From the NCBI GenBank assembly GCA_021792615.1, contig JAJYUJ010000008.1, positions 11,900 to 75,899 of the forward strand: a stretch of 64,000 nt of DNA, given 5' to 3'. Positions 7,535 to 35,395 of this stretch are shown here, one piece after another; position 1 is the stretch's first letter, and every line of letters starts with the position of its first letter. The position numbers were made by a program, and so were the translations under genes. A model generated the notes under the pieces. That model was not told where the DNA came from and searched no databases. It saw nothing but the letters and a program-made list of their open reading frames with translations. This DNA is from a bacterium (GTDB taxonomy: Bacteria > JAMCPX01).

Positions 7535-7580
7535 TGTTTTTTATAAGCTTGAGACCGTAAAATGTTTCATGTGAAACACT

Positions 7581-12650: not shown

Positions 12651-12681
12651 ATCTTTCCGAAAGTAAATCATTCATACAACA

Positions 12682-13040: not shown

Positions 13041-13196
13041 TAATAGTAACAACAATGACCGAGAAATGCAATACTGAAACCATACAATGATTATTTTCCT
13101 TTATTCAAGTACAACTCTACGTGCTATCCTGTACGGAGCTAGTTTAAGTACCGTTCTAAATAAATTATGTATTAAATTACATATAAGGAGAGTGCT

Positions 13197-13632: not shown

Positions 13633-13840
13633 CCGTATAATGGCCGTTACAGAATTCGGAAAAAATCGAATGTTAAGTTCCCCGAGAATTCCCATAAGAA
13701 ATGTTATGTCAACTATTAATTTCGAATAAGTTAGAACTCTCCCAGAACCTCGTGATTGCCCCGTAATCACCCCATCACATCCGTGGCGCTGCCTTGCCCG
13801 TAGGTTATCCCTTATCAGATCCCATTATTTATTATGTTTC

Positions 13841-14473: not shown

Positions 14474-14513
14474 AGAGTCTGCCTCCTTTTCTTGGTGCTC
14501 TTATTGATATTCT

Positions 14514-16091: not shown

Positions 16092-16113
16092 ATTTTTTTC
16101 TTCTCAAGAATGC

Positions 16114-18999: not shown

Positions 19000-19010
19000 A
19001 AGTACCTCCC

Positions 19011-20322: not shown

Positions 20323-20817
20323 TCAGGGCTGTTTCTTTGATTTGCCTGAAAACAGCAGGTCGATGGCGAGCAGGATTGCTCCGACGGTGATCGCACTGTC
20401 CGCTACGTTGAACGCAGGCCAGTGCGTGTTTTTTACAAACACATCTATAAAATCCACAACGTAACCGAGCCGTATCCGATCGATAACATTTCCAACCGCA
20501 CCGCCCATGATCATGGATAATGCGATCATGGACAATCCGGTCATGTCCTTCGAAAACAGATATACAAAAAACAGTACAATAAAAACGGCTACCGACAGCA
20601 CCGTAAGCATCGTTGTCCGGAATATACACTGGCCGTTGTTGAACATACCGAAAGCAACCCCCCGGTTATAGACACTGACGAGATCAAGGAAACCCGGGAC
20701 GATAACAACCTGCCGGGTAAGGTAATGGACCACAAGGTATTTTGACACCTGATCCAGCAGCACGATAACAGCGGCTATCAGAACGAGGGTCGTCAGCCTC
20801 TGCTTTAAGGGTATCAT
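20323..20817 (-). CDS. lspA: Lipoprotein signal peptidase II
   Basis: MIPLKQRLTTLVLIAAVIVLLDQVSKYLVV...NRGVAFGMF...FNVADSAI. The start overlaps the ileS stop. The tracked ORF 20323..20907 is N-terminally over-extended. Confidence 0.9.
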   Translation of the reverse strand: MIPLKQRLTTLVLIAAVIVLLDQVSKYLVVHYLTRQVVIVPGFLDLVSVYNRGVAFGMFNNGQCIFRTTMLTVLSVAVFIVLFFVYLFSKDMTGLSMIALSMIMGGAVGNVIDRIRLGYVVDFIDVFVKNTHWPAFNVADSAITVGAILLAIDLLFSGKSKKQP

Positions 20818-23612
20818 CAACGGACCGCCTCGACACATCGTGTGCACAGCGTCGGATGCTGCGCGTCCTGACCCACCGAATCCGAATAATTCCAGCACCG
20901 TTCGCATTTTTGCCCGTGCGCCTTTTGAATCTGCACGTTCAGGACATCTGTTCCCTGTTTTACTTCTACCTGGGAAACGATAAAAAGCTCGGTCAGGGTA
21001 TTTTTATATTTTTCCAGCAATGCCTTATCCTCTTTTCCGGCCTCAATGACAACCATCGTTTCCAGCGAAGAACCAATGGTCTTGTTTGCACGCTGTATCT
21101 CGATAGCCTTGTTGACCTCGTCCCGTATGAGTCTCAGCCTGCCGTAGTCCTGATATACCGTCGTGTCCGTTTCCGGGAATACCCGGTGCCGGGCACTATC
21201 CGTTAAAAATATACTTTCTGTCCCTTTGTCCGGCATATATCGCCATACTTCTTCCGCCGTAAACGACAAGACCGGCGCAAGCATGGTAACAAGTGAAACA
21301 AGAATATCATACAGCACGGTCTGTCCGGAGCGCCGTGCTGTTGAAGTAGCTTTTGAAACATACAATCTGTCCTTGAGAATATCCAGATAGAAAGAACTCA
21401 GATCGACGATACAGAAATCGAGGATTGCATGATAAACGATATGGAAATCATACTCACGATAAGCCCGGTCTATTCGTTTGACAAGCTCCGCGGTCTTATA
21501 CAGCATATAACGATCGACCGCCTGCATATCCGCATATGCCGTCCGTCCTTGCGCAGGATCGAAATCATACAGGTTCCCCAATATGAATTTTATGGTATTC
21601 CGGATCTTTCGGTACGCCTCTTTCAATCGTTCCAGGATTTCCTTTGAAACACTGACGTCGCCTCTGAAATCCTCTGCGGAAACCCACAATCTCAGTACAT
21701 CCGCGCCATACTTATCAATGACCTCCTGCGGTGCAACGACGTTGCCGAGCTGTTTGCTCATTTTTCTGCCCTTCTCGTCCACAACAAATCCATGGGTGAG
21801 TACGGCCCTGTACGGTACGCCGTGTCCCGCCGTCAGGGATGTAAGCAGTGTCGATTGGAACCATCCCCTATGTTGATCGCTGCCCTCGAGATAAAGGTCC
21901 GCAGGCCAGACAAGATTATCGGTATGTTTGAGCACCACCGCATGACTAACCCCGGAGTCGAACCACACGTCCAGAATATTTTCTTCCTTCTCAAAACTTT
22001 TTCCGCCGCACTTCGGGCATGCATAGTCCGCCGGTATGAAGTCTCCGGCATCTTTTTCGAACCACGCATCAGCTCCTTTATCTTTAAACAGTTGAGAAAC
22101 GCGCAAAGCAATATCCGGGTCCGCTACACTCTGCCCGCATCCCTTGCAGTAGAACACCGGGATCGGCACACCCCATACGCGCTGCCGGGATATACACCAA
22201 TCCGGTCTTGTTTCGAGCATGCCCTGAATCCTGTCTTTGCCCCATGAAGGTATCCACGCAACGCTATCTATTGCCTTCAACGCTTCTTTTCTCAGGTCGT
22301 GCTTTTCAACGGAGATAAACCATTGTTCCGTGGCCCTCGTTATAACGGGCTTTTTGCACCGCCAGCAGTGCGGATATGCATGAGGGTAGTCCTGCTGTTT
22401 TAACAGTGCACCATTTTCCTTGAGCTTTTCTATAATCTCTTTATTCGCATCGAATACGAACTTGCCGGCAAAAAACTCCACCTCGTTCATGAATTTGCCA
22501 TACCTGTCCACCGGTGAATAGACCTCAAGCCCGTACCGCTCTCCGGTCTTATAGTCATCTGCGCCGTGTCCCGGTGCAGTATGAACGCAACCCGTACCGA
22601 TATCCGTTGTAACGTAATCCCCGAGCGTAATAAGAGAGTCCCTGTTATAAAAGGGATGTGACGCAATAATGCCTTCAAGCGTTTCGCCCTTAAAAATCCC
22701 TTTTACCTGCCCTTCTTTCCACCCCGGCAATATTTCCTTAAGACTCGCCAACAGCGGTTGGGCAACAATATAAATATACTCTATTGGTTGTGACGGTACT
22801 CCCGGTACAAAAGAAACATCTGTTTTGACTTCGAAAGCAACGTACTCCAGTTCCGGGTGTACGGTAATGGCAAGGTTGGCTGGAAGTGTCCATGGTGTTG
22901 TCGTCCATATGACAAAATAAACATTTTTGCCCCTCAATGATGCCGGCAGCTTTCCTTTGTCGTCCTTGACCTTGAACCGGACATAGACAGAGGGAGAGAC
23001 ATGGTTTTCGTATTCGACTTCAGCCTCTGCAAGCGCGGTAGCGTCGTGAGCGCACCAGTAAACAGGCTTTTTGCCTTTATACACATAGCCGTTGCGCATG
23101 ATCTTCGACAGCTCTTCGACGATCGCCGCTTCATAGCCGTAATTCATGGTGAGGTAAGGCGCTTCCCACCTGCCGAGAACCCCGAGCCGCATAAACTCCT
23201 GCCGCTGTATATCGACAAACTGCTGTGCAAATTTTCTGCATTCCCGGCGTATCTCGAGTTTCGACATCCCCTGTTTTTTCTGTCCCAGAGACTTATCGAC
23301 ATTATGTTCAATGGGCAAACCATGACAATCCCAGCCGGGCACGTACTCCGCTTTGAAACCGTGCATTGCTTTTTCCTTGATGATAATATCTTTCAGAATC
23401 TTGTTGAGCGCATGGCCTATGTGTATGTGTCCATTCGCATACGGAGGTCCGTCATGAAGCATAAAGGTTGCACCGGAGCTGTTTTTCCTGATGATCTTTT
23501 CATAGATGGCATTCTCCTCCCAGAACTTGAGAATATCCGGCTCTTTTTTGGGAAGGTCCGCCTTCATCGGAAAATCGGTCTTCGGTAAATTCAACGTGTT
23601 CTTGTAATCCAT
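20817..23612 (-). CDS. ileS: Isoleucine--tRNA ligase
   Basis: 931 aa with HIGH (PYANGHIHIGH) and KMSKS (KMSKQLGN) motifs and a C-terminal Zn-binding CxxC...CxxC. Confidence 0.97.
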   Translation of the reverse strand: MDYKNTLNLPKTDFPMKADLPKKEPDILKFWEENAIYEKIIRKNSSGATFMLHDGPPYANGHIHIGHALNKILKDIIIKEKAMHGFKAEYVPGWDCHGLPIEHNVDKSLGQKKQGMSKLEIRRECRKFAQQFVDIQRQEFMRLGVLGRWEAPYLTMNYGYEAAIVEELSKIMRNGYVYKGKKPVYWCAHDATALAEAEVEYENHVSPSVYVRFKVKDDKGKLPASLRGKNVYFVIWTTTPWTLPANLAITVHPELEYVAFEVKTDVSFVPGVPSQPIEYIYIVAQPLLASLKEILPGWKEGQVKGIFKGETLEGIIASHPFYNRDSLITLGDYVTTDIGTGCVHTAPGHGADDYKTGERYGLEVYSPVDRYGKFMNEVEFFAGKFVFDANKEIIEKLKENGALLKQQDYPHAYPHCWRCKKPVITRATEQWFISVEKHDLRKEALKAIDSVAWIPSWGKDRIQGMLETRPDWCISRQRVWGVPIPVFYCKGCGQSVADPDIALRVSQLFKDKGADAWFEKDAGDFIPADYACPKCGGKSFEKEENILDVWFDSGVSHAVVLKHTDNLVWPADLYLEGSDQHRGWFQSTLLTSLTAGHGVPYRAVLTHGFVVDEKGRKMSKQLGNVVAPQEVIDKYGADVLRLWVSAEDFRGDVSVSKEILERLKEAYRKIRNTIKFILGNLYDFDPAQGRTAYADMQAVDRYMLYKTAELVKRIDRAYREYDFHIVYHAILDFCIVDLSSFYLDILKDRLYVSKATSTARRSGQTVLYDILVSLVTMLAPVLSFTAEEVWRYMPDKGTESIFLTDSARHRVFPETDTTVYQDYGRLRLIRDEVNKAIEIQRANKTIGSSLETMVVIEAGKEDKALLEKYKNTLTELFIVSQVEVKQGTDVLNVQIQKAHGQKCERCWNYSDSVGQDAQHPTLCTRCVEAVR

Positions 23613-23710
23613 AATAACTTAACACTTTAAATGAATAACGAACACTCTGTCAAGCACCTACGTGCCGGTTCGTGATTTGCCAACGTATGTTCCCGGTGAA
23701 TGTGCCGCTA

Positions 23711-24112
23711 TCAGTGAGGAATATTTGTCTTTTTTTTGTCAAACATGGGCGATGAGATCAAAAAATCCGCCGTTGCCCTGTTGCAGGCCATGGGGATGTT
23801 GTACAGCACGGCAAGCCTCAGCAGAGCTTTCACGTCGACGTCGTGCGGCTGCGGTGTCAGAGGGTCCCATAAAAAAATGAGTATATCTATCTTTCCTTCT
23901 GCGATCATGGCGCCCGTTTGCGCATCCCCGCCGTGAGGCCCGCTCAGTAAAAGGTTCACCTCGAGCCCCGTATGTCTTTTTATTTCCTGTCCGGTAGACC
24001 GGGTCGCATAAACGGTGTATTCTCTGAGTGTTCCTTCATTGTATTTTACCCATTCCACAAGGTCCAGCTTTTTAGAATCATGCGCAACAAGCGCAATGAC
24101 CTTATTGTTCAT
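23711..24112 (-). CDS. mgsA: Methylglyoxal synthase
   Basis: [15 protein letters not shown]...ATRSTG...GPHGGDAQ...FLWDPL. The tracked ORF is over-extended by 15 codons. Confidence 0.9.
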
Positions 24113-24187
24113 AGAAAAAGTCTCCTTTTTTTGTTTTGTCCCGTCCCTGTCCCGCAACCCGGGAATAAAGTAACGGTTCCATGGGTC

Positions 24188-25576
24188 TTACTTGCCTATG
24201 CAGAATTCTGCAAAGATCTTATCGAGTATATCCTGCGATGTCACTTCTCCGGTAAGCTCTTTCAGTCCGACAAGCGCGCTGTCGACTTCTTCGGCGACAA
24301 TTTCCGGGAATGCCTGTTGATCGATAAGATTGATGGCTGCATTTAAGGAAAGCTCTATATGTTCCAGTGCCTGCTTATGCCGGTACCTGTTTATGACCGG
24401 CGCATTCTCGATCGAGGGCGATAGAGCGGGTCCTGAAACGCCCTGTACGAGTGACTCGACGCCTTCGCGCGTTTTAGCCGATACCGGGAATACGGAATAA
24501 TCCTCAAATGCATTTTTTGCCTGTTCAATCTGGTCTGCGGATGCAATATCCACTTTGTTTATCGCGATAATGACATTGTCCTTGTGCTCTTGTGCGATCG
24601 AGAGTTCTTCGTCGTAACGAGACGCTGCCGCCGGATCAATAACAATGATGACGATATCCGATTTTTCTACCCTGCTGCGGGTCATCTCCATACCAAGCTT
24701 TTCGATAGGCTCTTCGCTGTTCCGGATCCCCGCAGTGTCGGTAAATACGAGTTTTACGCCTTTGTGGTTGATTACTTCTTCTATATAGTCCCTCGTCGTT
24801 CCCGGATGGGGTGTAACTATGGCCCTGTTTTCTCCGACGATTGCGTTAAAAAGGCTTGATTTGCCCGCGTTGGGCCTTCCAATCAATACAACGTGTATGC
24901 CTTCCCGTATAATTTTTGCATGGTCGTAACTTTTCAATACGTGTACGACCTCATCATGCGCAGCCTGCAGTATGAACTTCAGATCGAACAATTGCTTTGG
25001 GGAAGCTTCCTCCTCCGGAAAATCTATCAGCACTTCTAAGTTTGTTTTTACCTGAACGAGCTTTTTCTTTATCGAAGAAATAAACTCGGACAGTACGCCC
25101 GAAATCTGTTTTATTGCCTGCACTCTCGCAGCGTCTGTATCCGCCCGAACAAGATCCAAAACCGCTTCCGCCTGTAACAGATCCATCTTGCCATTCAAAA
25201 ATGCCCGTCTGGTAAATTCTCCCCTGTCTGCAAGCCTTGCCCCGGCCTTCAATACTCTCTGCAAAACGGAGTTGATGACATTCGAACCTCCGTGCGTGTA
25301 TATCTCCACCATTTCCTCCCCGGTGTAGGTTTTGCCGGCTTTCATAAAAGCGATCAATACCTGATCGAGAGAAGAGGTGTTTGCCCCATTCATAACAGAA
25401 CCCCGGTACAATCTGTGGCTCTGATATTTTTTTATGGGTTTTGAAGGTAAAAATATCTCCCGGAATATTTGGTATGCCTTGTTGCCGCTCAGCCGGACTA
25501 TGCCTATGGCGCCTTCACCCTGGGCCGTGCTTATGGCAGCAATGGTGTCGGTTGTTACGATTGTATTTTTTTTCAT
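24188..25576 (-). CDS. mnmE: tRNA modification GTPase MnmE (TrmE)
   Basis: 462 aa with G-domain motifs (GRPNAGKSSL, DTAG) and the C-terminal CIGK motif. Confidence 0.95.
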   Translation of the reverse strand: MKKNTIVTTDTIAAISTAQGEGAIGIVRLSGNKAYQIFREIFLPSKPIKKYQSHRLYRGSVMNGANTSSLDQVLIAFMKAGKTYTGEEMVEIYTHGGSNVINSVLQRVLKAGARLADRGEFTRRAFLNGKMDLLQAEAVLDLVRADTDAARVQAIKQISGVLSEFISSIKKKLVQVKTNLEVLIDFPEEEASPKQLFDLKFILQAAHDEVVHVLKSYDHAKIIREGIHVVLIGRPNAGKSSLFNAIVGENRAIVTPHPGTTRDYIEEVINHKGVKLVFTDTAGIRNSEEPIEKLGMEMTRSRVEKSDIVIIVIDPAAASRYDEELSIAQEHKDNVIIAINKVDIASADQIEQAKNAFEDYSVFPVSAKTREGVESLVQGVSGPALSPSIENAPVINRYRHKQALEHIELSLNAAINLIDQQAFPEIVAEEVDSALVGLKELTGEVTSQDILDKIFAEFCIGK

Positions 25577-26054
25577 AGTACTGTTTTATTCAGTTTAATC
25601 TTTTACCGCTTGTCACGGCAACGATTATAAAACCTATTCCTATTCTGTGCATATTCATGTACAAGTGTCAATCTGACAGAGAGTATCCACTCTCAAAAAC
25701 CTTCCCGGTTTGCCGCTCAATGTTTGCTATCATCAAAAGCTTGACAAGCAGGAATTATAGCATAATATGAAGTTGTGAAAAAGACTAAATTACTTTTATA
25801 TTTCAATAAGTTAGTCAATAACAACACTTTGTGGTCAGTTTTTTACACTATACCATATATTGTTTATATTTAATGGTTTTTTTTCGCATGAAAAGCAGGG
25901 GAAAAGCACAGAAAATGAATGGTAACTATTTGTATTATATATACTTTACAGGTTTTCCACAGGTGTTGAAAAACTTGTGTGTTTCTCATGCTGGTTTGCT
26001 TTTGATCTCAACAAGTTACACTACAAGTTATATGATAATTATAAGGGGGCCTCT
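25577..26054. other. AT-rich mnmE-dnaA intergenic region; candidate oriC / dnaA promoter region
   Basis: About 480 bp at around 30% GC. DnaA-box-like 9-mers: TTTTCCACA near 25953 and GTATCCACT near 25683. There are few perfect boxes. Confidence 0.4.
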
Positions 26055-27371
26055 ATGGAAGCGTGGGAAAAAATAAAAAAAGAATTGATTAATATTTATA
26101 AGGATACCAACGACGATCCGTGGATAACTATCTTAAATCCTTTAAGTTTTAATGATAACTCCCTTATACTTGGGGTACCTGATGATTTTTCATTAGACTG
26201 GATAAAAACTCACTATCACTCTGATATATTGAAATTGGCAAGGTCTATAATCGGCGACGGAACAAATGTCGAGTTGGTAATCGACCATAGAGAAGAAATC
26301 GATGTTGAAAGTCACGCTTTTTTACCTAATATAGGGTTTACCCATCTCAATAATTCAAAAGGCCTTTTAAAAAACTATACCTTTGATAATTATGTGGTAG
26401 GCGAATCAAATAAATTTGCAAGCGCTGCCGCGGTTGCCGTTTCTCAAAACCCGGGCAGGTCATATAATCCTCTTTTTATATACGGCGGTGTCGGACTCGG
26501 CAAAACACACGTTATCAATGCGATCGGCAACCTCATCGACGATGAACATAAAGGGTTGAATATCATTTATATGACCACGGAAAATTTCGTTAACGATCTT
26601 GTGAATCATCTGAGAGACAGGAAAATGGATATTTTCAGGGAGGTCTATAGAAATTGCGATGTGCTGCTTATCGATGATATTCAGTTTATTTCGAATAAGG
26701 AGCGATCCCAGGAAGAAATGTTTCATACATTCAATACGCTGTATGAAGAAAAGAAACAGATAGTATTTACGTCCGATAAACTCCCCAAAGAAATTCCCAA
26801 TATAGAGGAGCGGCTGAGAAGCAGGTTCGAGATGGGTCTTATCGCAGACATACAGGTACCCGACATAGAAACGAAGGTAGCTATTATAAAAAAGAAGGCA
26901 GAGAGTGACCGTATCGAGATCGATGATGAAATAGCTTTTTTCCTGGCATACAACACCCAATCGAACATACGGGAACTCGAAGGCTATCTTACCCGGTTGT
27001 CCGCGTATGCAATTTTGACAAAGACAAAGCTGAATATCCACGTTGCAAAAGAAGTTTTATCCGGTCTCATTAGAAAAAAGGATAAATGGCTTACCATAGA
27101 TGATATCCAGAAAGCAGTAGCCATGCATTTCAAAATAAAAGTTTCAGACCTTCTTTCTACGAAGAGAATGAAGTTTATAGCCCTCCCCAGGCAGGTGGCA
27201 ATGTTTTTGTCCCGCACGCTCACCAATGCTTCTTATCCTGAAATAGGACTCCAATTTGGGAACAAGGACCATTCAACCGTCATTCACTCCGTCAATAAAA
27301 TAACAGAGATGATAAAGGACAATCAAAGTATAAAAGATGCTGTTGAAAAAATCAAAAAAGGTTTAGGATAA
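26055..27371 (+). CDS. dnaA: Chromosomal replication initiator protein DnaA
   Basis: Walker A GGVGLGKTH, sensor LIDDIQF, and domain IV (RQVAMFLSRTLTNASYPEIGLQFGNKDHSTVIHS). Start at MEAWEK with the RBS AAGGGGG. Strikingly low GC, about 33-36%. Confidence 0.95.
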   Translation: MEAWEKIKKELINIYKDTNDDPWITILNPLSFNDNSLILGVPDDFSLDWIKTHYHSDILKLARSIIGDGTNVELVIDHREEIDVESHAFLPNIGFTHLNNSKGLLKNYTFDNYVVGESNKFASAAAVAVSQNPGRSYNPLFIYGGVGLGKTHVINAIGNLIDDEHKGLNIIYMTTENFVNDLVNHLRDRKMDIFREVYRNCDVLLIDDIQFISNKERSQEEMFHTFNTLYEEKKQIVFTSDKLPKEIPNIEERLRSRFEMGLIADIQVPDIETKVAIIKKKAESDRIEIDDEIAFFLAYNTQSNIRELEGYLTRLSAYAILTKTKLNIHVAKEVLSGLIRKKDKWLTIDDIQKAVAMHFKIKVSDLLSTKRMKFIALPRQVAMFLSRTLTNASYPEIGLQFGNKDHSTVIHSVNKITEMIKDNQSIKDAVEKIKKGLG

Positions 27372-27556
27372 GAGAGTGATAAAGTTGTTGAAAAAGTACA
27401 ATTTATTTTTTATAGTGTTTATCAACAGAATAAGAACAATAGATTAAACAGGAATTATGAATTGTTTATATAAAAAATTCAATAACATAAGATAATAATT
27501 ATTTTATAAACATGCTTTACTACTACTAAAAATATAAAGACTATTAGGAGAGAATA
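27372..27556. other. Extremely AT-rich dnaA-dnaN spacer; alternative oriC / DNA-unwinding-element candidate
   Basis: About 20% GC. Contains TTATCAACA, which is 8/9 of the DnaA box TTATCCACA, near 27418. Confidence 0.35.
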
Positions 27557-28651
27557 ATGGAATTTACAATAGATAAAAGAATTTTGCTGATAGAAGTAAG
27601 CAAGGTTATCGGTGCAACGGAGCGAAAAGCTACAATGCCTATTTTATCAAATATATTATTAAAAGCGGAGAAGGGGACTCTTAAGATAACGGGAACGGAT
27701 TTGGAAGTTACGATAATAAGCATCATCAACTGTAATATTGTATCGGAAGGACAGGTATCCATTCCTGCAAAGAAATTTTATGATTATATCAGAGAATTGC
27801 CGGACAGGGACATCAACATAAAAAAAGAAGACGGTTTTATAGAGATCAGTACGGAAAAGATTTCCGGCAGATTAAAGGTGTTACAGGCAGAGGATTTTCC
27901 ACATATAGACGAATACAAGGGAAGTTATACGAAGGTATCGTATGAACAATTATTAAAGATGATCGATAAAACAATCTATGCAACGTCAATCGATGAAGTA
28001 AAATATAGCTTGAATGGTGTTTATATAGAAAAGGCCCTCGATAGTCTGCGTTGTGTTGCGACGGACAGTCACCGTCTTGCTCTGTACGAGGATGAAAGTC
28101 TAAAATCTATAGAGGGTCTTACAAAAGGTATCATCGTTCCAAGAAAAGGTCTGTATGAAATAAAGAAAATCGGCACGGAAAATGAAATAAATATCGCGGT
28201 AGAAAAAAATAAAAATTTAATTGTGAATATAGGGAATACGATTATACAAATACGGTTACTGGATTATGATTTTCCGGATTATAAATCGGTTTTACCTTCC
28301 GAAACAACAATAAATATAAAAATAAAAAAAGATATTTTGGTGTCCGCGGTCAAAAGGGCACAATCGATATATCAGGAAAAAATATCGCGGGTTGTATTGG
28401 ACATACAGAAAGACACAATCATCGTCGAGAGCAACGAACCCGATATCGGTGAAGTAAAGGAAGAAATAGAGATCGACTATAAAGGTAATCCGCTGAAAAT
28501 AGGGTTTAATGGCAAATACCTGCTCGATTGTTTGAACTCTATGGACGGCGAATTCGTATCCATGGGTTTCAATAACGAACAAAGCGCAAGTACGTTTTTT
28601 GCGGACGACAATAAAAAGCATATGAACCTCATCATGCCGATGAGGATGTAA
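27557..28651 (+). CDS. dnaN: DNA polymerase III beta sliding clamp
   Basis: 364 aa with a three-domain clamp architecture, starting MEFTIDKRILL, and a C-terminal MPMRM. Low GC, like dnaA. Confidence 0.93.
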   Translation: MEFTIDKRILLIEVSKVIGATERKATMPILSNILLKAEKGTLKITGTDLEVTIISIINCNIVSEGQVSIPAKKFYDYIRELPDRDINIKKEDGFIEISTEKISGRLKVLQAEDFPHIDEYKGSYTKVSYEQLLKMIDKTIYATSIDEVKYSLNGVYIEKALDSLRCVATDSHRLALYEDESLKSIEGLTKGIIVPRKGLYEIKKIGTENEINIAVEKNKNLIVNIGNTIIQIRLLDYDFPDYKSVLPSETTINIKIKKDILVSAVKRAQSIYQEKISRVVLDIQKDTIIVESNEPDIGEVKEEIEIDYKGNPLKIGFNGKYLLDCLNSMDGEFVSMGFNNEQSASTFFADDNKKHMNLIMPMRM

Positions 28652-28663
28652 TCCCGGTCAGGG

Positions 28664-28698
28664 AACCGGCCAAAGGCCGGTAAGTCTTCTGACTTTTA
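28664..28698 (+). terminator. Candidate rho-independent terminator after dnaN
   Basis: CCGGCC-aaa-GGCCGG stem followed by taagTCTTCTGACTTTT. Confidence 0.4.
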
Positions 28699-28798
28699 CG
28701 TGGCTTTATACAAACCCTTTCAATAAGGAAATTTTTCGCAGTATGCCCGCCATACGAGGATGGGCTTATGAACGGGATAAAGGATAAGAGGTGAAACT

Positions 28799-29302
28799 AT
28801 GAAAAAAATGACCGAACAGAACTTGAGAGCGGCTTTTGCGGGAGAGTCTCAGGCTCACATGCGTTATTTGATTTTTTCCGAAAAAGCCGAAAAAGAAAAG
28901 AAAACAAATCTTGCACGCCTTTTTAAGGCTATCTCTTTTGCCGAACAGGTACATGCTACCAACCATTACCGGGCACTCGGGGAGATCCGGGACTCATCGA
29001 ATAATCTTCAGGAAGGCATAGACGGAGAAACGTACGAAGTGGAAGATATGTACCCTGCATATAAAGCAGTCGCCGAACTCCAGAAAGAACAATCCGCGGT
29101 CAGGACTACAAACTATGCGCTGGAAGCGGAAAAGATACACGAAGAAATGTATAAAACCGCAAAACAAACGGTTGATCAGGGAAAGGACATAGAAATCGGA
29201 GACATGTATATATGCGATATCTGCGGATACACGGTCGAAGGGGAAGCTCCTGCCGTCTGTCCGATCTGCGGCGCGAAAATAGAAAGGTTTAAAAAATTCT
29301 AA
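28799..29302 (+). CDS. rbr: Rubrerythrin (ferritin-like diiron domain plus a C-terminal rubredoxin-like CxxC...CxxC)
   Basis: 167 aa with EsQAhmRYlifsekA diiron-ligand helices and CDICGYTVEGEAPAVCPICGA. Confidence 0.9.
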   Translation: MKKMTEQNLRAAFAGESQAHMRYLIFSEKAEKEKKTNLARLFKAISFAEQVHATNHYRALGEIRDSSNNLQEGIDGETYEVEDMYPAYKAVAELQKEQSAVRTTNYALEAEKIHEEMYKTAKQTVDQGKDIEIGDMYICDICGYTVEGEAPAVCPICGAKIERFKKF

Positions 29303-29309
29303 AAAAGAA

Positions 29310-29341
29310 GGGGGCAGGTTTTCTCCCAGCCCCCTTTGGTT
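29310..29341. terminator. Bidirectional terminator hairpin between rubrerythrin (+) and the DUF2892 gene (-)
   Basis: GGGGGC-aggttttctccca-GCCCCC, flanked by an A-run upstream and TTTGGTT downstream. Confidence 0.5.
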
Positions 29342-29561
29342 ATTTCTTTTCTCCCTGCTGCGGTTGATCAGGCTTTTTTACCGTAGAGATCCCTGCAACC
29401 CGATACAGAGGACAGTAGTTTATACTCCCCGTCAGTATGGGAATAAAGCCTATGAGTCCCACCCATCTCCATGCAGAATGTACCCAAAAGATCATAGAGA
29501 TTAACAGCAACCCTATTATCCAGCGTATGATTTTATCTGTCGATCCGACATTTTTTTCCAT
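29340..29561 (-). CDS. DUF2892 (YgaP-like) small two-TM membrane protein
   Basis: MEKNVGSTDKIIRWIIGLLLISMIFWV...GFIPILTGSINYCPLYRVAGI, preceded by the RBS GGAGGTGTGT. The tracked ORF 29340..29753 is over-extended. Confidence 0.65.
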   Translation of the reverse strand: MEKNVGSTDKIIRWIIGLLLISMIFWVHSAWRWVGLIGFIPILTGSINYCPLYRVAGISTVKKPDQPQQGEKK

Positions 29562-29792
29562 ACACACCTCCTGAGGCATAACATATACCATATATAAAAA
29601 AATACAAGAACAAGGCCGCAGGATTTTACCCGGCATCGTCTTTAACTCCTCCCCTGCTCCGAATAAATCCATAAAACACCCGCAGGCATTTTCCGGTTCA
29701 TCCACAAATGCATTTGAAAAACAGGGAAGTTTGTATATAGTTGCAATGTGCAATAAAGAGAGTAAATATCATTCCAGAAAAGGAGATAAGAT

Positions 29793-30668
29793 ATGGAAGA
29801 GCACAATAAAGAGGCGGTCATCGGTATTATCGGCGGCAGCGGGCTTTATTCAATAGAAGGTTTAAAGGGTATACAAGAAAAAAGAATAACGACACCGTTT
29901 GGAGAGCCCTCGGACGCCTATATTATGGGAGAGCTCGACGGCACAACTGTGGTTTTTCTGCCCCGGCACGGCAGGGGACACCGCATTTCTCCATCGGAGA
30001 TCAATTTCAGGGCCAACATATTCGGAATGAAGATGCTGGGTGTTAACAGGCTCATATCCGTCAGCGCAGTCGGCAGTATGAAAGAGCAAATCAAACCCGG
30101 ACACATTGTTGTGCCGGATCAATTCATAGATTTGACAAAACGGAGAATATCGACTTTTTTTGGCAATGGCCTCGTGTCCCATGTTTCTATGGCAGACCCC
30201 GTATGTCCCGTTTTGTCCGAAAAACTCTCCACAACCGGAAAGGATCTGGGCATTCCGATGCACAAGGGAGGTACGTATATTTGTATCGAGGGCCCACAGT
30301 TTTCTTCAAGAGCAGAATCGCACCTTTACCGGCAATGGGGCGTGGACATCATAGGTATGACGAATATGCCCGAAGCGAAGCTCGCGCGGGAGGCGGAGAT
30401 TTGTTATGCAACGCTCGCCCTTGCTACGGATTATGATTGCTGGTATCAGGGTATGAAGGATGTCGGCGTTGAGGATGTTGTAAAAATCATGAGCGAAAAC
30501 GTGGTAAACGCAAAAAAAATAATAGGTGCGGTTGTTCCCCGTATCGAAAAAGAAAGGGAATGCTCCTGTGCACACGCCCTGAAAGACAGCTTCCTTACCG
30601 CTGCCGAAGCAATACCGCAACAAATCAAATCCGATTTAAAACCTATCATAGGGGGTTACCTGAAGTGA
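29793..30668 (+). CDS. mtnP: S-methyl-5'-thioadenosine phosphorylase (PNP family 2)
   Basis: 291 aa: GIIGGSGLY...[23 protein letters not shown]...[19 protein letters not shown]. Confidence 0.9.
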
Positions 30669-31111
30669 AGACAATTAAAATAGTGTTCCCGCTGATTTTA
30701 CTGCCGTTCTTTTTTTCCTGTGCCGCACAGAACAATGTTATCGACACCGGAAATACAATGCAGGAAAGATATGCAGCAATGAGACAGGAGGAGCAGTCTT
30801 TCAATGTAAATCTTATCCCGCCGGACAACGGCAGGGCGATATGGGAAGGAAAACAACTGGAAGATCCCTTCAACGTAAGGGTAAATCAGGGAAAGACCTA
30901 TCAAATAGAAATTGATACTGGTGACGGTAACGCATACAAGGGTACCGTTCAGGTCATCGGCGACGGTGGGACCGTCGGAATGCACCAGGGATTCGATGTG
31001 CGGCTGTCTGGTTATATCCGGGAGATGCTGAAACACACTAAGCAGGTATCCTACTATCTGAATTCGCCCGGCGGTAAACAGGAACTGCTGGTAACATTTT
31101 TTGCACCCTGA
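30665..31111 (+). CDS. Small lipoprotein, unknown function
   Basis: The GTG start overlaps the MTAP stop. Lipobox FFFSCAAQ. 148 aa. Confidence 0.5.
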
Positions 31112-31178
31112 CCCGATATCGTATTTTCTTGTCTACAGGGAATAGAGTCCAACGACAGCACATAAGTAAAAAGCCGAG

Positions 31179-32219
31179 ATGAATATTTTTTATAAAAAAA
31201 ACCCCCTGATCGATGTTGTGCTGCTGCCGTTGGTTGTGGTATCCCTTGTTTTCCGTTTCATAACGGACATACGAAGGTTCCTTTACCTGCAGGGTATCCT
31301 CAGCTCGTACCGGGCGAAAAGCCGCATCATATCCGTCGGCAACCTTACGGTCGGGGGCACGGGAAAGACGCCGATGGTCATCTACCTGAGCACGATCCTT
31401 ACCGGGAAAAGGCTTGCAGTTGTCTCAAGGGGCTACGGTTCCAAAGGCAGGGGAACCAGGATTGTTTCGGACGGTAAAAACATTCTCCTGGGTGCAGAGT
31501 TGTGTGGCGACGAACCGTACCTTATAGCGAAATCCATTCCCGGTGCGGTTGTTGCCGTTGGAGCGAAAAAAGCACAGGTCATCCGTTTTGTCGAGCAGCA
31601 GTATAGTCCGGACATTATTATACTGGATGACGGCTTTTCCCACCTTAAAGTGAAACGGGATCTGGACATCGTGCTGATTGACGGAGAGAAAGGTTTTGGG
31701 AATGGCCACCTCCTGCCTGCGGGCCCTCTCAGGGAACCTCCGGGAGCGATGCGCCGTGCAGACAGTATCGGGGTAAAAGGGGAAGGGCACACGGTTGAAA
31801 ATCAGATCAAAAAATACGCACCGCTTGATAAGGTCTTTCATTTTACGTACCGCTTCAAGGGGATAAAAACTATCCGCCAAGACGCGGAAGTGGATGCGGG
31901 TACCATGAAAAACAAAAAAGTGCTGGCGGTTGCGGGTATAGCATTCCCGGACAGCTTTTTCCGTACGCTTGAAGCGGCCGGCGTTCACCCTGCAAACTGT
32001 ATAGCCGGGCAGGACCACAGCACCTATGATAAAAATAAGCTCCGTATGCTTACGGAACGGTTCAGCCCGGATGCGGTAATAGTAACCGCAAAGGACGCGG
32101 TGAAGATTAAGGAAATAGAAAGGGACGAAGGAGTGCAGTGGTTGTACGCAGATATAGCAGTCTCAGAGGCCGGGGAAAATCTGAAAAACATACTCCGGAA
32201 GAAAGGTTTTCTGCCGTGA
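31179..32219 (+). CDS. lpxK: Tetraacyldisaccharide 4'-kinase
   Basis: 346 aa with the P-loop ISVGNLTVGGTGKTP. Confidence 0.9.
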   Translation: MNIFYKKNPLIDVVLLPLVVVSLVFRFITDIRRFLYLQGILSSYRAKSRIISVGNLTVGGTGKTPMVIYLSTILTGKRLAVVSRGYGSKGRGTRIVSDGKNILLGAELCGDEPYLIAKSIPGAVVAVGAKKAQVIRFVEQQYSPDIIILDDGFSHLKVKRDLDIVLIDGEKGFGNGHLLPAGPLREPPGAMRRADSIGVKGEGHTVENQIKKYAPLDKVFHFTYRFKGIKTIRQDAEVDAGTMKNKKVLAVAGIAFPDSFFRTLEAAGVHPANCIAGQDHSTYDKNKLRMLTERFSPDAVIVTAKDAVKIKEIERDEGVQWLYADIAVSEAGENLKNILRKKGFLP

Positions 32220-33106
32220 TCAAAAAAGTCAGGCATTTTTTGGAATATAAAGTCGTACGTGCGCTCATCCTTTTCTTGAATATGTTTTCAGAAAAACAAA
32301 TCGCATCGATTGCGGCGTTCTTCGGGTTTTTGTGGTACAGGATAGACGCCAGGCACCGCGCGATCGCAAAAACAAACATAGGATACGCATTCCCCTCGAT
32401 GTCCATGGAGAACAAGTCCAGGATTTTACAAGAAAGCTACAAGAACATCATAAAGACATTCATAACATTTCCCCGGATCGCGGATTTTCATGCGGAAAGC
32501 ATCAAAAAGACATTCGAATTTCAATGCGAAGAATACTACGAAGAGGCCCTCAAAAGAGGGAAGGGCGTGTTCCTGCTGACCGGCCATCTTTGCAACTGGG
32601 AATTTGCGGCAGCAGCGCACAGCATAAAGCACGGGGGTCTTGTGGCAGTTGCAAAAGACATCCACAACCCCTTCATCGACAGCTACATAAAGGCCCTGCG
32701 CAAAAGTGCGCTTATAGATGTCGTAAGGCCGCGCAATGCGGTTTTCAGACTCCTCCGGAGCCTGAAGCAGGGAAAAACAATTGCCATGCTCCTCGATCAA
32801 AACACCCTGCGCCATGAGGCGGTGTTCGTCAATTTCTTCGGCAGACCGGCGGCAACACAGTATGCAATGGCGTTGATGGCTTTAAAAACGGGCGCTGCCG
32901 TTGTTCCGGGGTTTATAAGCCCGGATCCCGTAAACGACAGGTACGTTATACGGTATGAAAAGCCAATCTATGCCGACGGTATCCAGGACAAGGAAAAAGC
33001 AGCGGAGAAGTTAACCCAGCAGTTTACAACGATCCTGGAGGACCAAATCAAAAGAGTTCCCGGACAATGGTTCTGGGTGCACAACAGGTTCAAAACCACA
33101 CTTTGA
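32216..33106 (+). CDS. lpxL: Lipid A biosynthesis late acyltransferase (LpxL/HtrB family, lysophospholipid acyltransferase superfamily)
   Basis: The GTG start overlaps the lpxK stop. Signal-anchor KKVRHFLEYKVVRALILFL..., then an HX4D-like NWEFAAAAHS region. The tracked ORF begins earlier, at 32138. Confidence 0.75.
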   Translation: MIKKVRHFLEYKVVRALILFLNMFSEKQIASIAAFFGFLWYRIDARHRAIAKTNIGYAFPSMSMENKSRILQESYKNIIKTFITFPRIADFHAESIKKTFEFQCEEYYEEALKRGKGVFLLTGHLCNWEFAAAAHSIKHGGLVAVAKDIHNPFIDSYIKALRKSALIDVVRPRNAVFRLLRSLKQGKTIAMLLDQNTLRHEAVFVNFFGRPAATQYAMALMALKTGAAVVPGFISPDPVNDRYVIRYEKPIYADGIQDKEKAAEKLTQQFTTILEDQIKRVPGQWFWVHNRFKTTL

Positions 33107-33151
33107 GGATATGAAGATAGCAGAAAAAGCATAAAGACCGCAGGCAGCAGC

Positions 33152-35395
33152 ATGAAAAAGAAAACAAAAAAAAAGGTGTACGTAATTTCCCTTGCAGCGG
33201 CAGGTATACTGGTTATTACCGCCTCGGTGTTTCTCTATTTTCTCTACGTGAAGATAACGGAGGTTTTTATTTCAAGAGGGTTTCCTTCGCCGTCCATCGT
33301 CTACGCTGCTCCCACATTCATACAAAACGGCATGGGTATGTCCATACAATCGCTGCAGGATAAATTGAATGCACTCGATTATCATGAGACAGACGCTGAG
33401 CCCGTGAAGCAGGGTAGTTATTCGGTGTCCGGAAATGCCGTGTATGTCTATACCAAAAAATTTGCTATGCCTGCCTATACCATAACGCCCGTGCAGGCCC
33501 GTATACCGGTATCCGGCGGCACGGTATCCGGTATGACCGATTTCAGCGGCACTGCGATAAGCAGCATCGAACTGGAACCCGAACAGCTTGCGGTATTTTT
33601 TGGTGATGATTTTAAAATGCGTATCCCGGTAGCGCTCCCCGCAATGCCGGATGACCTTCTCAATGCAGTCATTGTCACAGAGGATGCGCGGTTCTTTGAG
33701 CACGGGGCCATAGATATAAACGGCATAATCAGGGCCATGATTGCGGATATCGCGTCCATGAGCATACAGCAGGGAGGCAGTACCATAACGCAACAGCTTG
33801 TAAAAATACTTTTTCTCAGTAATCAACGCACCTTCAGAAGGAAGTTCATGGAAGCGATCATGGCGTTAATGATAGCACACCGTTTTACAAAGGCGCAGAT
33901 ACTCAATGCATACCTGAACGATGTTTATCTCGGACAGGATGGACACATCAGTATTGTCGGTATGGGGGCTGCAGCCAAATATTATTTTTCGAAGCCTGTA
34001 GCAAAGCTGACCCTCGCACAATGCGCCATGCTTGCAGGACTGATCGCATCACCGAACCGGTACTCGCCGATCTATGGCGGGGAAGAGGCCATGAAAAGAA
34101 GGAACTACGTCCTTTCCAGGATGATGTTGTACCATGTGATCACCAACAGCGAGTATCAGACCGCGCTCGGCGAGCCCATAACGGTAGAAGTGTCACCGGT
34201 ACATGTTAAAAAAGCTCCGTACTTTGTGGATTATATTGAAGGCCAGCTTTCAGAAAATTATTCAAAAGAACTCTTAACGACAGACGGCTTGAGAATTTTT
34301 ACAACGCTCGACCCGGATGTGCAGTCTATGGCTGAGAAAGCCATGGGTGAAGCACCGGCATCGCTTGAAGGTGCCATGGTTGTCATGCAGCCGCAAACAG
34401 GCTATGTGCTGGCCATGATAGGCGGCAGGGATTATAACAAAAGTCAGTTCAACCGGGCTGTTCTGTCGAGAAGGCAGATTGGCTCGTGCGTCAAACCTTT
34501 TATCTATATGCTTGCATTTGAAACGATGGCGAAAGACGGCTTTTCCCAAATTACAACCATTGATGATGCGCCGTTGAAGATGGAAACCGGTGCAGGAGAA
34601 TGGGAGCCGCAAAACTATGACAAGCGGTTTTTAGGGTATATGACCGCACGCTATGCCTTGCAGCACTCGATCAATGTACCCGCGGTAAAGGTCTCGATGG
34701 ATGTGGGTATCGAAAAGATTTCGGGATTGCTCGAACTGCTCGGACTGGACTCGGATATTCCGGCATTTCCGTCTATTGCCCTCGGCAGTACAGCGACATC
34801 ACCGCTGGATCTGAGCCGGGTATATACGATATTTTCCAACAACGGGTATGAACCCGTAACACCGGTAAGTATAAAGGCCGTCACGGATATGGATAATAAT
34901 ATTATCTATAAAACGGAACTGCAATTCAAACCTGTGGGCAGCGAACAGGCATGCTATGTCGTTACGAATGTGCTTCTTGGAAATGAGACAGAAGGCACGG
35001 GCAGGGGGTTGCGGCGGTTCGACATCCAGGGACAGTATTCCGGAAAAACCGGTACGACGAACGATTTCAGGGACACATGGTTTGCGGGATACACCCCGGA
35101 TGTCGTTGCTGTTGCCTGGTTGGGCTATGACAACGAGGCAAGGATCGGGGTGCCGGCTGCAGCAGTGGCTTTGCCGGTTGTCGGCAGATTTCTCGGCATG
35201 TATACGCACCGGTACGGAGGCAAAGACTTCCCCGTGCCACCGGGCATAAAATTCTCCTGCGTCGACCGTTCCACAGGCCTGAGCGGCAGGAATATAACGG
35301 ATTGTGTTCAGGCCGCGTTCATATCCGGGACAGAACCAAGCAGGGGTGCAATAAACAGCATCATGGACTGGTTCAAACATCTGTTCAGAAAATAA
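33152..35395 (+). CDS. mrcA: Class A penicillin-binding protein (PBP1A family; transglycosylase plus transpeptidase)
   Basis: 747 aa with an N-terminal TM anchor, GT51 motifs (EDARFFEHGAIDI, TITQQL) and transpeptidase motifs SCVKPF (SxxK), SxN and KTGT. Confidence 0.92.
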   Translation: MKKKTKKKVYVISLAAAGILVITASVFLYFLYVKITEVFISRGFPSPSIVYAAPTFIQNGMGMSIQSLQDKLNALDYHETDAEPVKQGSYSVSGNAVYVYTKKFAMPAYTITPVQARIPVSGGTVSGMTDFSGTAISSIELEPEQLAVFFGDDFKMRIPVALPAMPDDLLNAVIVTEDARFFEHGAIDINGIIRAMIADIASMSIQQGGSTITQQLVKILFLSNQRTFRRKFMEAIMALMIAHRFTKAQILNAYLNDVYLGQDGHISIVGMGAAAKYYFSKPVAKLTLAQCAMLAGLIASPNRYSPIYGGEEAMKRRNYVLSRMMLYHVITNSEYQTALGEPITVEVSPVHVKKAPYFVDYIEGQLSENYSKELLTTDGLRIFTTLDPDVQSMAEKAMGEAPASLEGAMVVMQPQTGYVLAMIGGRDYNKSQFNRAVLSRRQIGSCVKPFIYMLAFETMAKDGFSQITTIDDAPLKMETGAGEWEPQNYDKRFLGYMTARYALQHSINVPAVKVSMDVGIEKISGLLELLGLDSDIPAFPSIALGSTATSPLDLSRVYTIFSNNGYEPVTPVSIKAVTDMDNNIIYKTELQFKPVGSEQACYVVTNVLLGNETEGTGRGLRRFDIQGQYSGKTGTTNDFRDTWFAGYTPDVVAVAWLGYDNEARIGVPAAAVALPVVGRFLGMYTHRYGGKDFPVPPGIKFSCVDRSTGLSGRNITDCVQAAFISGTEPSRGAINSIMDWFKHLFRK

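Follow-up and report, generated by a model that had tools for sequence, protein, structure and literature searches.

The closest described counterparts of the locus analyzed here are the two-part oriC regions of Bacillus subtilis and Clostridioides difficile, in which oriC1 lies upstream of dnaA and oriC2, with the unwinding element, lies in an extremely AT-rich spacer between dnaA and dnaN. Clostridial origins of this type carry 9-19 and 5-9 DnaA boxes in their two parts (14-28 in total; PMC7561715). The C. difficile oriC2 trio reads 5'-CACCTACTACTATTACTACTATGA-3' (PMC7561715). The box-plus-trio arrangement is known as the basal unwinding system (BUS; Richardson 2019, PMC6669920; Pelliciari 2021, PMC8287927), and the rules used to search for it are permissive, with 85% of predicted origins matching (PMC8287927).

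In the 64,000-nt stretch of DNA that we analyzed (the window), the dnaA-dnaN locus has a similar layout, with DnaA boxes on both sides of dnaA, an extremely AT-rich dnaA-dnaN spacer and a box-plus-trio arrangement that is kept across the clade. Here top-strand CTA repeats (3'-GAT-5' trios) come a few bases after a DnaA box, just ahead of dnaN, and the orientation is that of the C. difficile trio. It differs from the B. subtilis/C. difficile type in having about 2 plus 3 conserved boxes, a single, degenerate trio-proximal box instead of a tandem pair, a divergent mnmE instead of rpmH-rnpA as upstream neighbor, and a Gram-negative deltaproteobacterial host. Moreover, the dnaA and dnaN coding sequences lie 10-12 GC points under the genome, compared with -0.01 to -0.04 at Firmicutes loci among the matches listed. 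Being a well-delimited segment of several kilobases with GC about 12 points lower than around it, the locus also resembles a horizontal-transfer island; unlike such islands, it is found in all relatives, tracks host GC, diverges congruently, is made up of essential core genes and carries none for mobility. From these sequence comparisons we conclude that it is very probably the native, vertically inherited chromosomal origin region, with a two-part oriC and a stable AT valley, of an uncultured deltaproteobacterial (Thermodesulfobacteriota-type) lineage. What we observed directly is that the dip exists, is conserved and follows host GC, that the phylogeny is congruent, and that boxes and trios are conserved.

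Genes and predicted origin elements

The following genes make up and border the block.

24188..25576, minus strand: mnmE (tRNA modification GTPase), divergent left neighbor; Pfam TrmE_N, MnmE_helical, MMR_HSR1
26055..27371, plus strand: dnaA, 438 aa; Pfam DnaA_N, Bac_DnaA, Bac_DnaA_C; GC1/2/3 = 0.45/0.29/0.42
27557..28651, plus strand: dnaN (beta sliding clamp), 364 aa; Pfam DNA_pol3_beta domains 1-3; GC1/2/3 = 0.41/0.28/0.40
28799..29302, plus strand: rubrerythrin (Pfam), right shoulder of the valley, 44.8% GC

The three DnaA families and the three clamp domains confirm the initial annotation of both genes as authentic. DnaA has domains I, III and IV and an invariant Walker A motif, GGVGLGKTH (alignment A1), and the identical protein was found in several independent assemblies; dnaN follows directly downstream. 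We placed the dnaA start at the ATG at 26055, after a GGGGG Shine-Dalgarno sequence, rather than at the GTG at 25977. The gene order is indeed atypical, as had been pointed out, with divergent mnmE upstream, rubrerythrin downstream and neither rpmH/rnpA nor recF/gyrB adjacent. No integrase, transposase, partition, Rep or conjugation family was detected by Pfam among the block neighbors (mnmE, an MGS-domain protein, ileS, lspA, rubrerythrin, MTAP, lpxK, a lipid A acyltransferase and PBP1), and no tRNA adjoins the block; Rfam gave no match in either spacer and two tRNAs elsewhere in the window (12.57-12.76 kb). Since the junctions are the same in four or more independent assemblies, an assembly chimera is ruled out.

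We compared the locus with those of six related species (L007, L008, L009, L091, L092 and L093; DnaA 89, 84, 80, 78 and 67% identical) and of an outgroup, L010. The dnaA-dnaN core was present in 7/7 related loci, and mnmE was upstream in 6/7; the relatives with syntenic mnmE are L007, L008, L009, L091 and L093. Rubrerythrin belongs to a conserved dnaA-dnaN-rbr-ygaP core and is syntenic in L007, L008, L091 and L092, in each of which its GC3 lies 0.05-0.15 under that of the flanks. The elements of the two spacers are listed below.

25577..26054, no strand: mnmE-dnaA spacer, proposed oriC1 and dnaA control region; long invariant blocks in clade alignment A2
25741..25768, plus strand: sigma-70-like promoter TTGACA-16-TAATAT, probable dnaA promoter; best-scoring plus-strand promoter match
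25953..25972, no strand: inverted pair of DnaA-box variants, TTTTCCACA-GG-TGTTGAAAA, from clade footprinting
26003..26019, no strand: conserved TGATCTCAAnAAGTTAC block in the dnaA leader; invariant except at one position (alignment A2)
27341..27349, minus strand: DnaA-box variant TTTTCAACA within the last dnaA codons; conserved position
27372..27556, no strand: dnaA-dnaN spacer, proposed oriC2 and unwinding region; 20.0% GC; clade alignment A3
27386..27394, minus strand: DnaA box TTTTCAACA in the dnaA-dnaN spacer; at +1325 to +1331 in 6/7 clade loci
27419..27427, plus strand: DnaA box TTATCAACA; at +1359 to +1366 in the window, L007, L091, L008 and outgroup L010
27504..27528, plus strand: module resembling the basal unwinding system, with box TTATAAACA, spacer TGCT, then TTA CTA CTA CTA

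The proposed oriC1 would consist of the promoter and the inverted box pair. Both promoter hexamers are invariant across seven sequences, down to 67% DnaA identity (alignment A2), and the promoter probably drives dnaA, which would imply a leader of about 280 nt. An invariant 30-nt block (25953-25982) begins with the 20 nt of the box pair, in a region that is also scored as a hairpin with a T-run after it. Measured from the dnaA ATG, the pair lies at -102/-91 across the clade loci, except that in L091 only the -90 box fits the strict pattern.

The proposed oriC2 covers the 3' end of dnaA plus the 20% GC spacer and would combine three DnaA boxes with the box-plus-DnaA-trio unwinding module. At the dnaA 3' end, TTTTCAACA is kept at +1283/+1286 in the window, L007, L092 and L091, while at 27386..27394 the relatives carry TTATCAACA where the window has TTTTCAACA. 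In the module, top-strand TTA CTA CTA CTA reads 3'-AAT GAT GAT GAT-5' on the bottom strand (DnaA-trios), and the A/T-rich DNA 3' of the trios runs into the dnaN ribosome-binding site. Both this box-like element and the trios persist throughout the clade (alignment A3). At the sequence level, the TTATAAACA-TGCT-trio module fits the published BUS search definition (PMC8287927), having a box with two mismatches, a 4-nt spacer and at least four consecutive 3'-NAN-5' trios, three of them 3'-GAT-5'. DnaA binding and strand separation are predicted for this candidate module, and DnaA-dependent unwinding and replication initiation for the locus.

DnaA boxes had initially been described as few and imperfect, which holds for the E. 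coli consensus TTATCCACA: the block contains no perfect match, and five one-mismatch matches occur in 25.9-29.7 kb. These matches were scattered, and it took a clade alignment to bring out the lineage variant TTWTCMACA. This variant is clearly enriched, with 14 matches compared to 3.2 expected (14 was reached in 0/100 shuffles), 6 of which lie within 25953-27903. At 8/8 loci, box density in the block was about tenfold that of the flanks, and box positions were conserved. Strict boxes number two upstream and three downstream, the latter including the one inside the last codons of dnaA. About five are conserved, few next to the 14-28 of clostridial two-part origins, which speaks against the origin reading. 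Clade footprinting largely settles the location of oriC, previously considered uncertain, as two-part and on both sides of dnaA. The result is an origin map for an uncultured deltaproteobacterial lineage, with a promoter, DnaA boxes at five conserved positions and a box-plus-trio unwinding module.

Before control for gene orientation, the cumulative GC skew had its minimum at about 25.5 kb. Once orientation was controlled at third codon positions, a small and nonsignificant GC3-skew change was left at 25.8 kb (+0.030; 95% CI, -0.007 to +0.067), a 64-kb window being too short for this test, and the best GC3-skew breakpoint in the window lay elsewhere. We thus do not use GC skew as origin evidence. 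Since the replication-strand signal is weak, the case for origin activity is therefore made by motif conservation and gene context.

Composition of the block and of related loci

The block (25577-28700) has a GC content of 36.2%, compared to 48.4% on its left (20817-25576) and 48.2% on its right (28799-35395). All other 3,124-bp segments, taken without the block and without the 12.8-20 kb island, averaged 48.9% (SD 1.2; minimum, 46.1; n = 884). Relative to 35 native genes (mean, 48.7% GC; SD 3.3), dnaA (38.6%; z = -3.1) and dnaN (36.4%; z = -3.7), the latter being the lowest-GC coding part of the valley, were both depressed, and their GC1, GC2 and GC3 were each below those of native genes (z -2.1 to -3.5). 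The GC contents of the mnmE-dnaA and dnaA-dnaN spacers were 32.8% and 20.0%. The dip reported by the initial annotation is thus real, although the gap to the neighbors is about 10-12 points (about 12 for the block) and not 15, and the reported 33-36% GC has to be corrected to 36-39% for the coding parts, with the two spacers as given. The composition of mnmE is typical of the host (47.5% GC, GC3 0.53). This gene shows almost no dip in the window, an observation that counts against reading the dip as an effect of position.

In every relative, dnaA-dnaN lay 7-14 GC points below the flanks, whose GC ranged from about 0.37-0.41 (L009, L092 and L093) to 0.54-0.60 (L007 and L008). GC3 of dnaA (0.25 to 0.60) and of dnaN (0.18 to 0.56) moved in step with the host, at a constant offset, and GC2 remained at 0.27-0.29. 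The dip was kept in L092, where other genes lie on both sides of the core, and was present in outgroup L010, which has unrelated neighbors (rodA, atp operon). Since the same dip is seen in all relatives whatever their genome GC, we consider it a lineage-typical origin feature and not a foreign or second module. A 12-point GC dip over core genes resembles transfer and is here inherited; comparing relatives of very different genome GC separates the two.

DnaA and DnaN also diverge in step with the flanking proteins. Identities to L007/L008/L009 were 89/78/67% for DnaA, 82/74/61% for DnaN, 71/65/56% for MnmE and 78/72.5/73% for MTAP, and those of PBP1 to L007/L008 were 73/72%. Congruent phylogenies had been named beforehand, together with the lack of a second copy, as an outcome that would speak against the initial reading, and the congruence is what we find here. 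Neighbor-joining (NJ) trees, a moderate test given the limited sample, recovered the clade as monophyletic in 100/100 bootstraps for DnaA and for DnaN; its sister group was purely deltaproteobacterial in 69/100 and 70/100 bootstraps and never a small group with Firmicutes. The named best matches outside the clade were Thermodesulfobacteriota, Desulfuromonadales and Geobacter. DnaA identity falls from 67% within the clade to about 50% outside, and deeper placement is weakly resolved because identities to many phyla, among the matches listed, are all 45-53%.

As a background, we surveyed 49 diverse bacteria among the matches listed in a DnaA profile search of genome contigs. Among these listed matches, dnaA lay on average 2 points below its flanks (SD 2.7), dnaA and dnaN were slightly under their flanks in 78-82% of the genomes, and the clade deficit was 3-4 SD deeper and extends to the protein level. 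Other deltaproteobacterial loci with unrelated synteny showed, among the matches listed, a shallower form of the same valley. The gammaproteobacterial loci among them (n = 3) had no dnaA-dnaN dip; in gammaproteobacteria, oriC classically lies away from dnaA. A literature search found no relevant earlier report of AT-depressed dnaA/dnaN coding regions. We regard this as an ordinary origin locus whose valley is inherited and quantitatively unusual in depth.

Explanations for the AT valley

The initial annotation had offered xenologous replacement, a second acquired replicon origin, and an unusually AT-rich origin domain as explanations. The evidence favors the last, and the valley is indeed deeper than in most bacteria. 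Judged from this contig, it is extremely improbable that the block was acquired horizontally in recent times or is a second replicon origin, for example a dnaA-dnaN of plasmid or chromid descent, integrated beside an ancestral mnmE. All that speaks for it is the compositional anomaly and the absence of rpmH-rnpA and recF-gyrB as neighbors, whereas the same block occupies the same place in relatives with DnaA identities as low as 67%, its composition follows that of each host, its spacer motifs are invariant across the clade, and no integrase, transposase, partition, Rep or conjugation gene or tRNA adjoins it. It contrasts in this with the island at 12.8-19.9 kb, which behaves like foreign DNA (GC3 0.27-0.31, adjacent tRNA genes, other cargo in relatives). 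Among the marks of transfer, the block shows deviant composition but neither patchy presence, incongruent phylogeny, donor-like composition nor mobility families. With block, core synteny and deficit common to six relatives, GC3 tracking the host, divergence congruent, both proteins branching among deltaproteobacterial sequences, and neither mobility nor plasmid or partition genes next to the block, xenologous replacement and a second replicon origin are both unsupported on this contig. An ancient replacement, by which the clade or a wider deltaproteobacterial ancestor took dnaA-dnaN from a very AT-rich donor and retained the amino acid composition as a relic, also appears very improbable. It could account for the resemblance of DnaA and DnaN in composition to orthologues from genomes of 26-30% GC, and the gap in DnaA identity outside the clade and the weakly resolved deep placement would agree with it. 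However, the deficit persists although synonymous sites have fully re-equilibrated in each host (dnaA GC3 0.25 to 0.60), and a one-off event leaves this unexplained; one-third of DnaA residues differ within the clade, yet GC2 has not gone up even in 55-58% GC hosts; and both the deltaproteobacterial, never Firmicutes, nearest outgroups of DnaA and DnaN and the shallower valley at other deltaproteobacterial loci among the matches listed argue against it. We also rejected an ancestrally AT-rich genome with lagging conserved proteins, because the equally conserved IleS, MnmE and MnmG have normal GC2 and AT-rich relatives dip as well.

It is possible, though in our view rather unlikely, that the dip belongs to the dnaA and dnaN genes themselves and not to their position, as Lys/Ile/Asn/Phe/Tyr-rich proteins encoded with AT-ending codons (e.g., through low expression or translational tuning); the locus would then still be native and vertically inherited. 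GC2 of dnaA/dnaN is fixed at 0.27-0.30 in every clade member whatever the host GC, which would fit such a protein-intrinsic cause, and the FYMINK fractions of DnaA and DnaN (0.36-0.43) match those of clostridial orthologues. The sharp boundary at mnmE in the window, the upstream MFS gene of L092, which has no dip, and the slight deficit in most of the 49 surveyed genomes among the matches listed point the same way. On the other side, GC3, on which the protein sequence sets no constraint, likewise falls 0.04-0.19 short of the flanks and is uneven along the genes, being lowest beside the two spacers: the clade-mean deficit is -0.20 over the first ~100 dnaA codons, -0.17 at the dnaN 5' end and -0.065 in mid-dnaA, with a return to baseline about 2 kb out (fine profile from six related genomes). 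Alternatively, conserved domains or selection on codons could underlie this within-gene pattern. Nonhomologous neighbors also share the valley, namely rubrerythrin in five genomes, mnmE in L008 and L091, and rodA and atpF/atpH in L010, while the gammaproteobacterial dnaA-dnaN loci among the matches listed have no deficit.

Because synonymous-site GC is lowest beside the two spacers, we favor a persistent local AT-favoring pressure, tied to origin function, as what maintains the valley. The valley measures roughly 3-4 kb, is centered on the two proposed origin spacers and persists while genomes drift from ~37% to 58% GC. The pressure might stem from selection, either for low duplex stability or for proteins to bind near the unwinding site, or alternatively from a local mutational bias, and would act on synonymous sites and, over time, on the amino acid composition of DnaA and DnaN. 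More speculatively, and with well below even odds in our judgment, the functional origin domain may span ~3-4 kb of essential coding DNA, with an origin-linked demand for AT (easier opening, or binding of nucleoid- or initiator-associated proteins) overriding GC drift from 37% to 58%, reshaping the composition of DnaA and the sliding clamp and possibly offsetting the unusually few DnaA boxes. If the valley is tied to position, origin function would be able to constrain the composition of neighboring essential genes, which would matter for origin prediction and for composition-based detection of transfer. Cytosine deamination of exposed single-stranded DNA is unsupported, as stated, as a simple cause of the dip. 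The plus strand of dnaN is rich in G and A (GC skew, +0.21; AT skew, +0.22), and this enrichment, which bears no C-to-T signature, is the usual purine bias of coding strands.

Composition and gene content of the dnaA-dnaN block

The dnaA-dnaN block (25577-28700) has a GC content of 36.2%, compared with 48.4% and 48.2% in the adjoining gene blocks, and other 3.1-kb windows average 48.9% (SD 1.2, minimum 46.1). The dip reported in the initial annotation is thus real, although its size is about 10 to 12 points rather than the claimed ∼15. dnaA (38.6% GC) and dnaN (36.4% GC) lie 3.1 and 3.7 SD, respectively, below the 35 native genes of the window and are depressed at all three codon positions, with GC2 of ∼0.28 versus a native mean of 0.38 and GC3 of 0.42 (dnaA) and 0.40 (dnaN) versus a native mean of 0.56. 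The only other native-region open reading frame (ORF) below 40% GC encodes 183 aa at the window edge (63199-63750; 38.9% GC, GC3 of 0.35).

Both genes encode complete domain sets and are authentic, as had been stated, and the gene order around them is atypical in the way first described:

Minus strand, in map order: lspA, ileS, an MGS-domain gene and mnmE, with mnmE at 24188-25576
mnmE-dnaA spacer: 479 bp
26055-27371, plus strand: dnaA, with its true start at ATG 26055
dnaA-dnaN spacer: 185 bp
27557-28651, plus strand: dnaN
Downstream of dnaN, plus strand: genes for rubrerythrin, MTAP, lpxK, lipid A acyltransferase and PBP1
Between the rubrerythrin and MTAP genes, minus strand: a small ygaP-like gene

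The window corresponds to contig DAIDZJ010000008.1 of metagenome-assembled genome GCA_027455045.1, and near-identical DnaA proteins from NCBI are labelled "Deltaproteobacteria bacterium." Several independent assemblies (NCBI, ENA, Logan) share this exact DnaA and its gene neighbours, so the junctions did not arise through misassembly. The genes on either side of the block include none for mobility, partition or Rep functions.

Inheritance of the block and variable DNA nearby

In a protein search, DnaA relatives formed a nested series (99, 95, 89, 85, 80, 78 and 67% identity), followed by a gap to about 50%, where the named matches were Thermodesulfobacteriota, Desulfuromonadales and Geobacter. 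Loci from six more species of this clade (L007, L008, L009, L091, L092 and L093) were retrieved for comparison. dnaA-dnaN is kept in all six and the divergent mnmE in five; L092 has a dnaA-dnaN-rbr-ygaP core whose neighbours differ on either side. The flanks have a GC of about 0.37-0.41 in L009, L092 and L093, 0.43-0.51 in L091 and 0.54-0.60 in L007 and L008, and in every related locus dnaA and dnaN lie 7 to 14 points below their flanks. GC3 follows the host, from 0.25 to 0.60 in dnaA and from 0.18 to 0.56 in dnaN, and GC2 stays at 0.26-0.30. Because GC3 moves with the host, synonymous sites have re-equilibrated many times over with the offset still in place, which is not how foreign DNA ameliorates. 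The same valley is present in the outgroup L010, whose DnaA is 51% identical and whose dnaA locus has unrelated neighbours, namely rodA upstream and the atp operon downstream.

The divergence of DnaA and DnaN is congruent with that of the flanking proteins. Identities to L007/L008/L009 are 89/78/67% for DnaA, 82/74/61% for DnaN, 71/65/56% for MnmE and 78/72.5/73% for MTAP; for PBP1 they are 73/72% to L007/L008. Neighbor-joining trees were built from 45 sequences, whose phyla were assigned by record title. In these trees, the clade was monophyletic in 100/100 replicates for both DnaA and DnaN, its sister group was purely deltaproteobacterial in 69/100 (DnaA) and 70/100 (DnaN), and no replicate of either gave a small sister group containing Firmicutes.

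Three origins had been proposed for the block. Xenologous replacement is not supported, given a dip common to relatives, host-following GC3, congruent divergence and the lack of flanking mobility genes; nor is a second acquired replicon origin, as dnaA-dnaN is inherited across relatives without flanking partition or Rep genes. The remaining option, an unusually AT-rich origin domain, agrees with the findings, and the block is probably a native, inherited origin region.

The valley of L091 (6554-15309) is much broader than that in the window, with GC3 of about 0.32-0.34 at mnmE/dnaA/dnaN rising gradually to 0.58-0.60 about 5 to 8 kb downstream, which hints that valley width differs between species. 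In L093, whose locus has about 38% GC, an 876-aa ORF (344-2974; 54% GC, GC3 of 0.59) without a Pfam match adjoins the gene of a WYL-domain helicase of the PIF1 family, located beside mnmE; the helicase also occurs in L009, and the ORF looks like a foreign insertion near the origin of L093.

A second low-GC stretch in the window does look foreign. It contains four minus-strand genes (GC3 of 0.27-0.38) encoding signal-peptide-like and beta-propeller proteins, one of which (961 aa) has no Pfam match:

12574-19886: low-GC stretch, 38-41% GC
12574-12650: tRNA-Arg(tct), bounding the stretch
12682-12757: tRNA-Pro(tgg), bounding the stretch

In relatives, this slot beside lspA-ileS is filled differently: L007 has a 970-aa Peptidase_C39-like gene there and L091 a gene for DruA (Druantia). 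The differing cargo suggests a variable integration hotspot.

Predicted origin elements

The exact oriC location had been called uncertain; aligning both spacers across the clade resolves its candidate elements at the sequence level:

25741-25768, plus strand: TTGACA-16-TAATAT, invariant, the best plus-strand promoter match (predicted)
Upstream of dnaA: conserved TTGTGG motif
25953-25982: invariant 30-nt block starting with two inverted DnaA-box variants, TTTTCCACA-GG-TGTTGAAAA
Upstream of dnaA: conserved TGATCTCAAnAAGTTAC
27341, minus strand: DnaA box
27386, minus strand: DnaA box
27419, plus strand: DnaA box
27504-27512: TTATAAACA box, followed by TGCT and the trios
27517-27528: trios TTA CTA CTA CTA (bottom strand, 3'-AAT GAT GAT GAT-5')

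The elements from 27341 to 27528 occupy the 3' end of dnaA and the dnaA-dnaN spacer, which has 20% GC. The lineage's own box variant, TTWTCMACA, has 14 matches in the window versus 3.2 expected, a count reached by 0/100 shuffles, and 6 of the 14 fall in 25953-27903. In the eight loci compared, boxes are about ten times as dense in the block as in the flanks, with conserved positions at -102, -91, +1283, +1328 and +1361 from the dnaA ATG.

The published search definition of the basal unwinding system (BUS) comprises a box with ≤2 mismatches, a spacer of ≤16 bp and ≥3 3'-NAN-5' trios, of which 3'-GAT-5' is most frequent (PMC6669920, PMC8287927). The element at 27504-27528 falls within this permissive definition, and its trio is oriented as in the experimentally unwound oriC2 of C. 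difficile (PMC7561715). From the sequence, with a permissive definition and few boxes, we infer a two-part oriC like those of Bacillus and Clostridioides that would unwind just upstream of dnaN. Cumulative GC skew is lowest near 25.5 kb, but this mostly reflects the coding strand; once gene orientation is accounted for, third-position skew changes there by +0.030 (95% CI, -0.007 to +0.067), and the breakpoint that fits best in the 64-kb window lies elsewhere.

The 25953-25982 block, which lies in the dnaA leader, scores in addition as a hairpin (25958-25979) with a T-run after it, and could serve as an RNA attenuator or roadblock besides or instead of a DnaA-box pair; being invariant, it offers no covariation to choose between them. 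A second small TTWTCMACA cluster (7341-8282) surrounds the mnmG start (ATG 7581):

7341, minus strand: TTWTCMACA match
7493, 8074 and 8274, plus strand: TTWTCMACA matches
7493-7513: inverted pair TTTTCAACA-GCC-TGTTGATTC, resembling the pair upstream of dnaA

This cluster may indicate that DnaA regulates mnmG transcription, or that the site titrates DnaA.

Cause and rarity of the valley

The clade-mean GC3 offset from the far flanks is deepest, at -0.20, over the first ∼100 dnaA codons; it shrinks to -0.065 midway through dnaA, deepens again to -0.125 at the 3' end of that gene and to -0.17 at the dnaN 5' end, and fades to about 0 within 2 kb in both directions. Valley shoulders extend into non-homologous neighbours, namely rubrerythrin (five genomes), mnmE (L008, L091) and rodA with atpF/atpH (L010). 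In gammaproteobacteria, oriC classically lies away from dnaA, and none of the three gammaproteobacterial dnaA loci among the survey matches listed showed a dip. Together, the profile, the shared shoulders and the dip-free gammaproteobacteria favour an origin-linked, position-dependent AT pressure that would produce the valley. Alternatively, the cause might be intrinsic to the genes, a view that draws support from a GC2 that stays constant, the abrupt boundary at the window's mnmE and codon selection that may operate within domains. Within the native reading, we give the positional cause no more than a modest edge over the gene-intrinsic one.

The locus is of an ordinary kind, the dnaA-dnaN origin region of a new lineage, and its compositional valley is quantitatively unusual and conserved. 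We surveyed cross-phylum dnaA loci from a genome collection. Among the matches listed, 49 had adequate flanks; in these, the mean deficit relative to the flanks was 2.0 GC points (SD 2.7) for dnaA and 2.6 points (SD 2.6) for the kilobase after it (dnaN), dnaA was never more than 8 points below, and the largest dnaA deficits were all in deltaproteobacterial or Syntrophaceae metagenome-assembled genomes. The dnaA-dnaN valley among the matches listed was -0.05 to -0.08 in other deltaproteobacteria and -0.01 to -0.04 both in Firmicutes and in Acidobacteriota, Nitrospirota and NC10, compared with -0.07 to -0.125 in the coding parts of this clade's valley. The valley is therefore a graded lineage trait, with this clade at the extreme. 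Our literature search found no prior account of a coding-region valley over dnaA/dnaN. The deficit extends to the protein level: the FYMINK fraction in the clade is 0.36-0.39 for DnaA and 0.39-0.43 for DnaN, resembling orthologues from clostridia of 26-30% GC even where the flanks have 55-58% GC.
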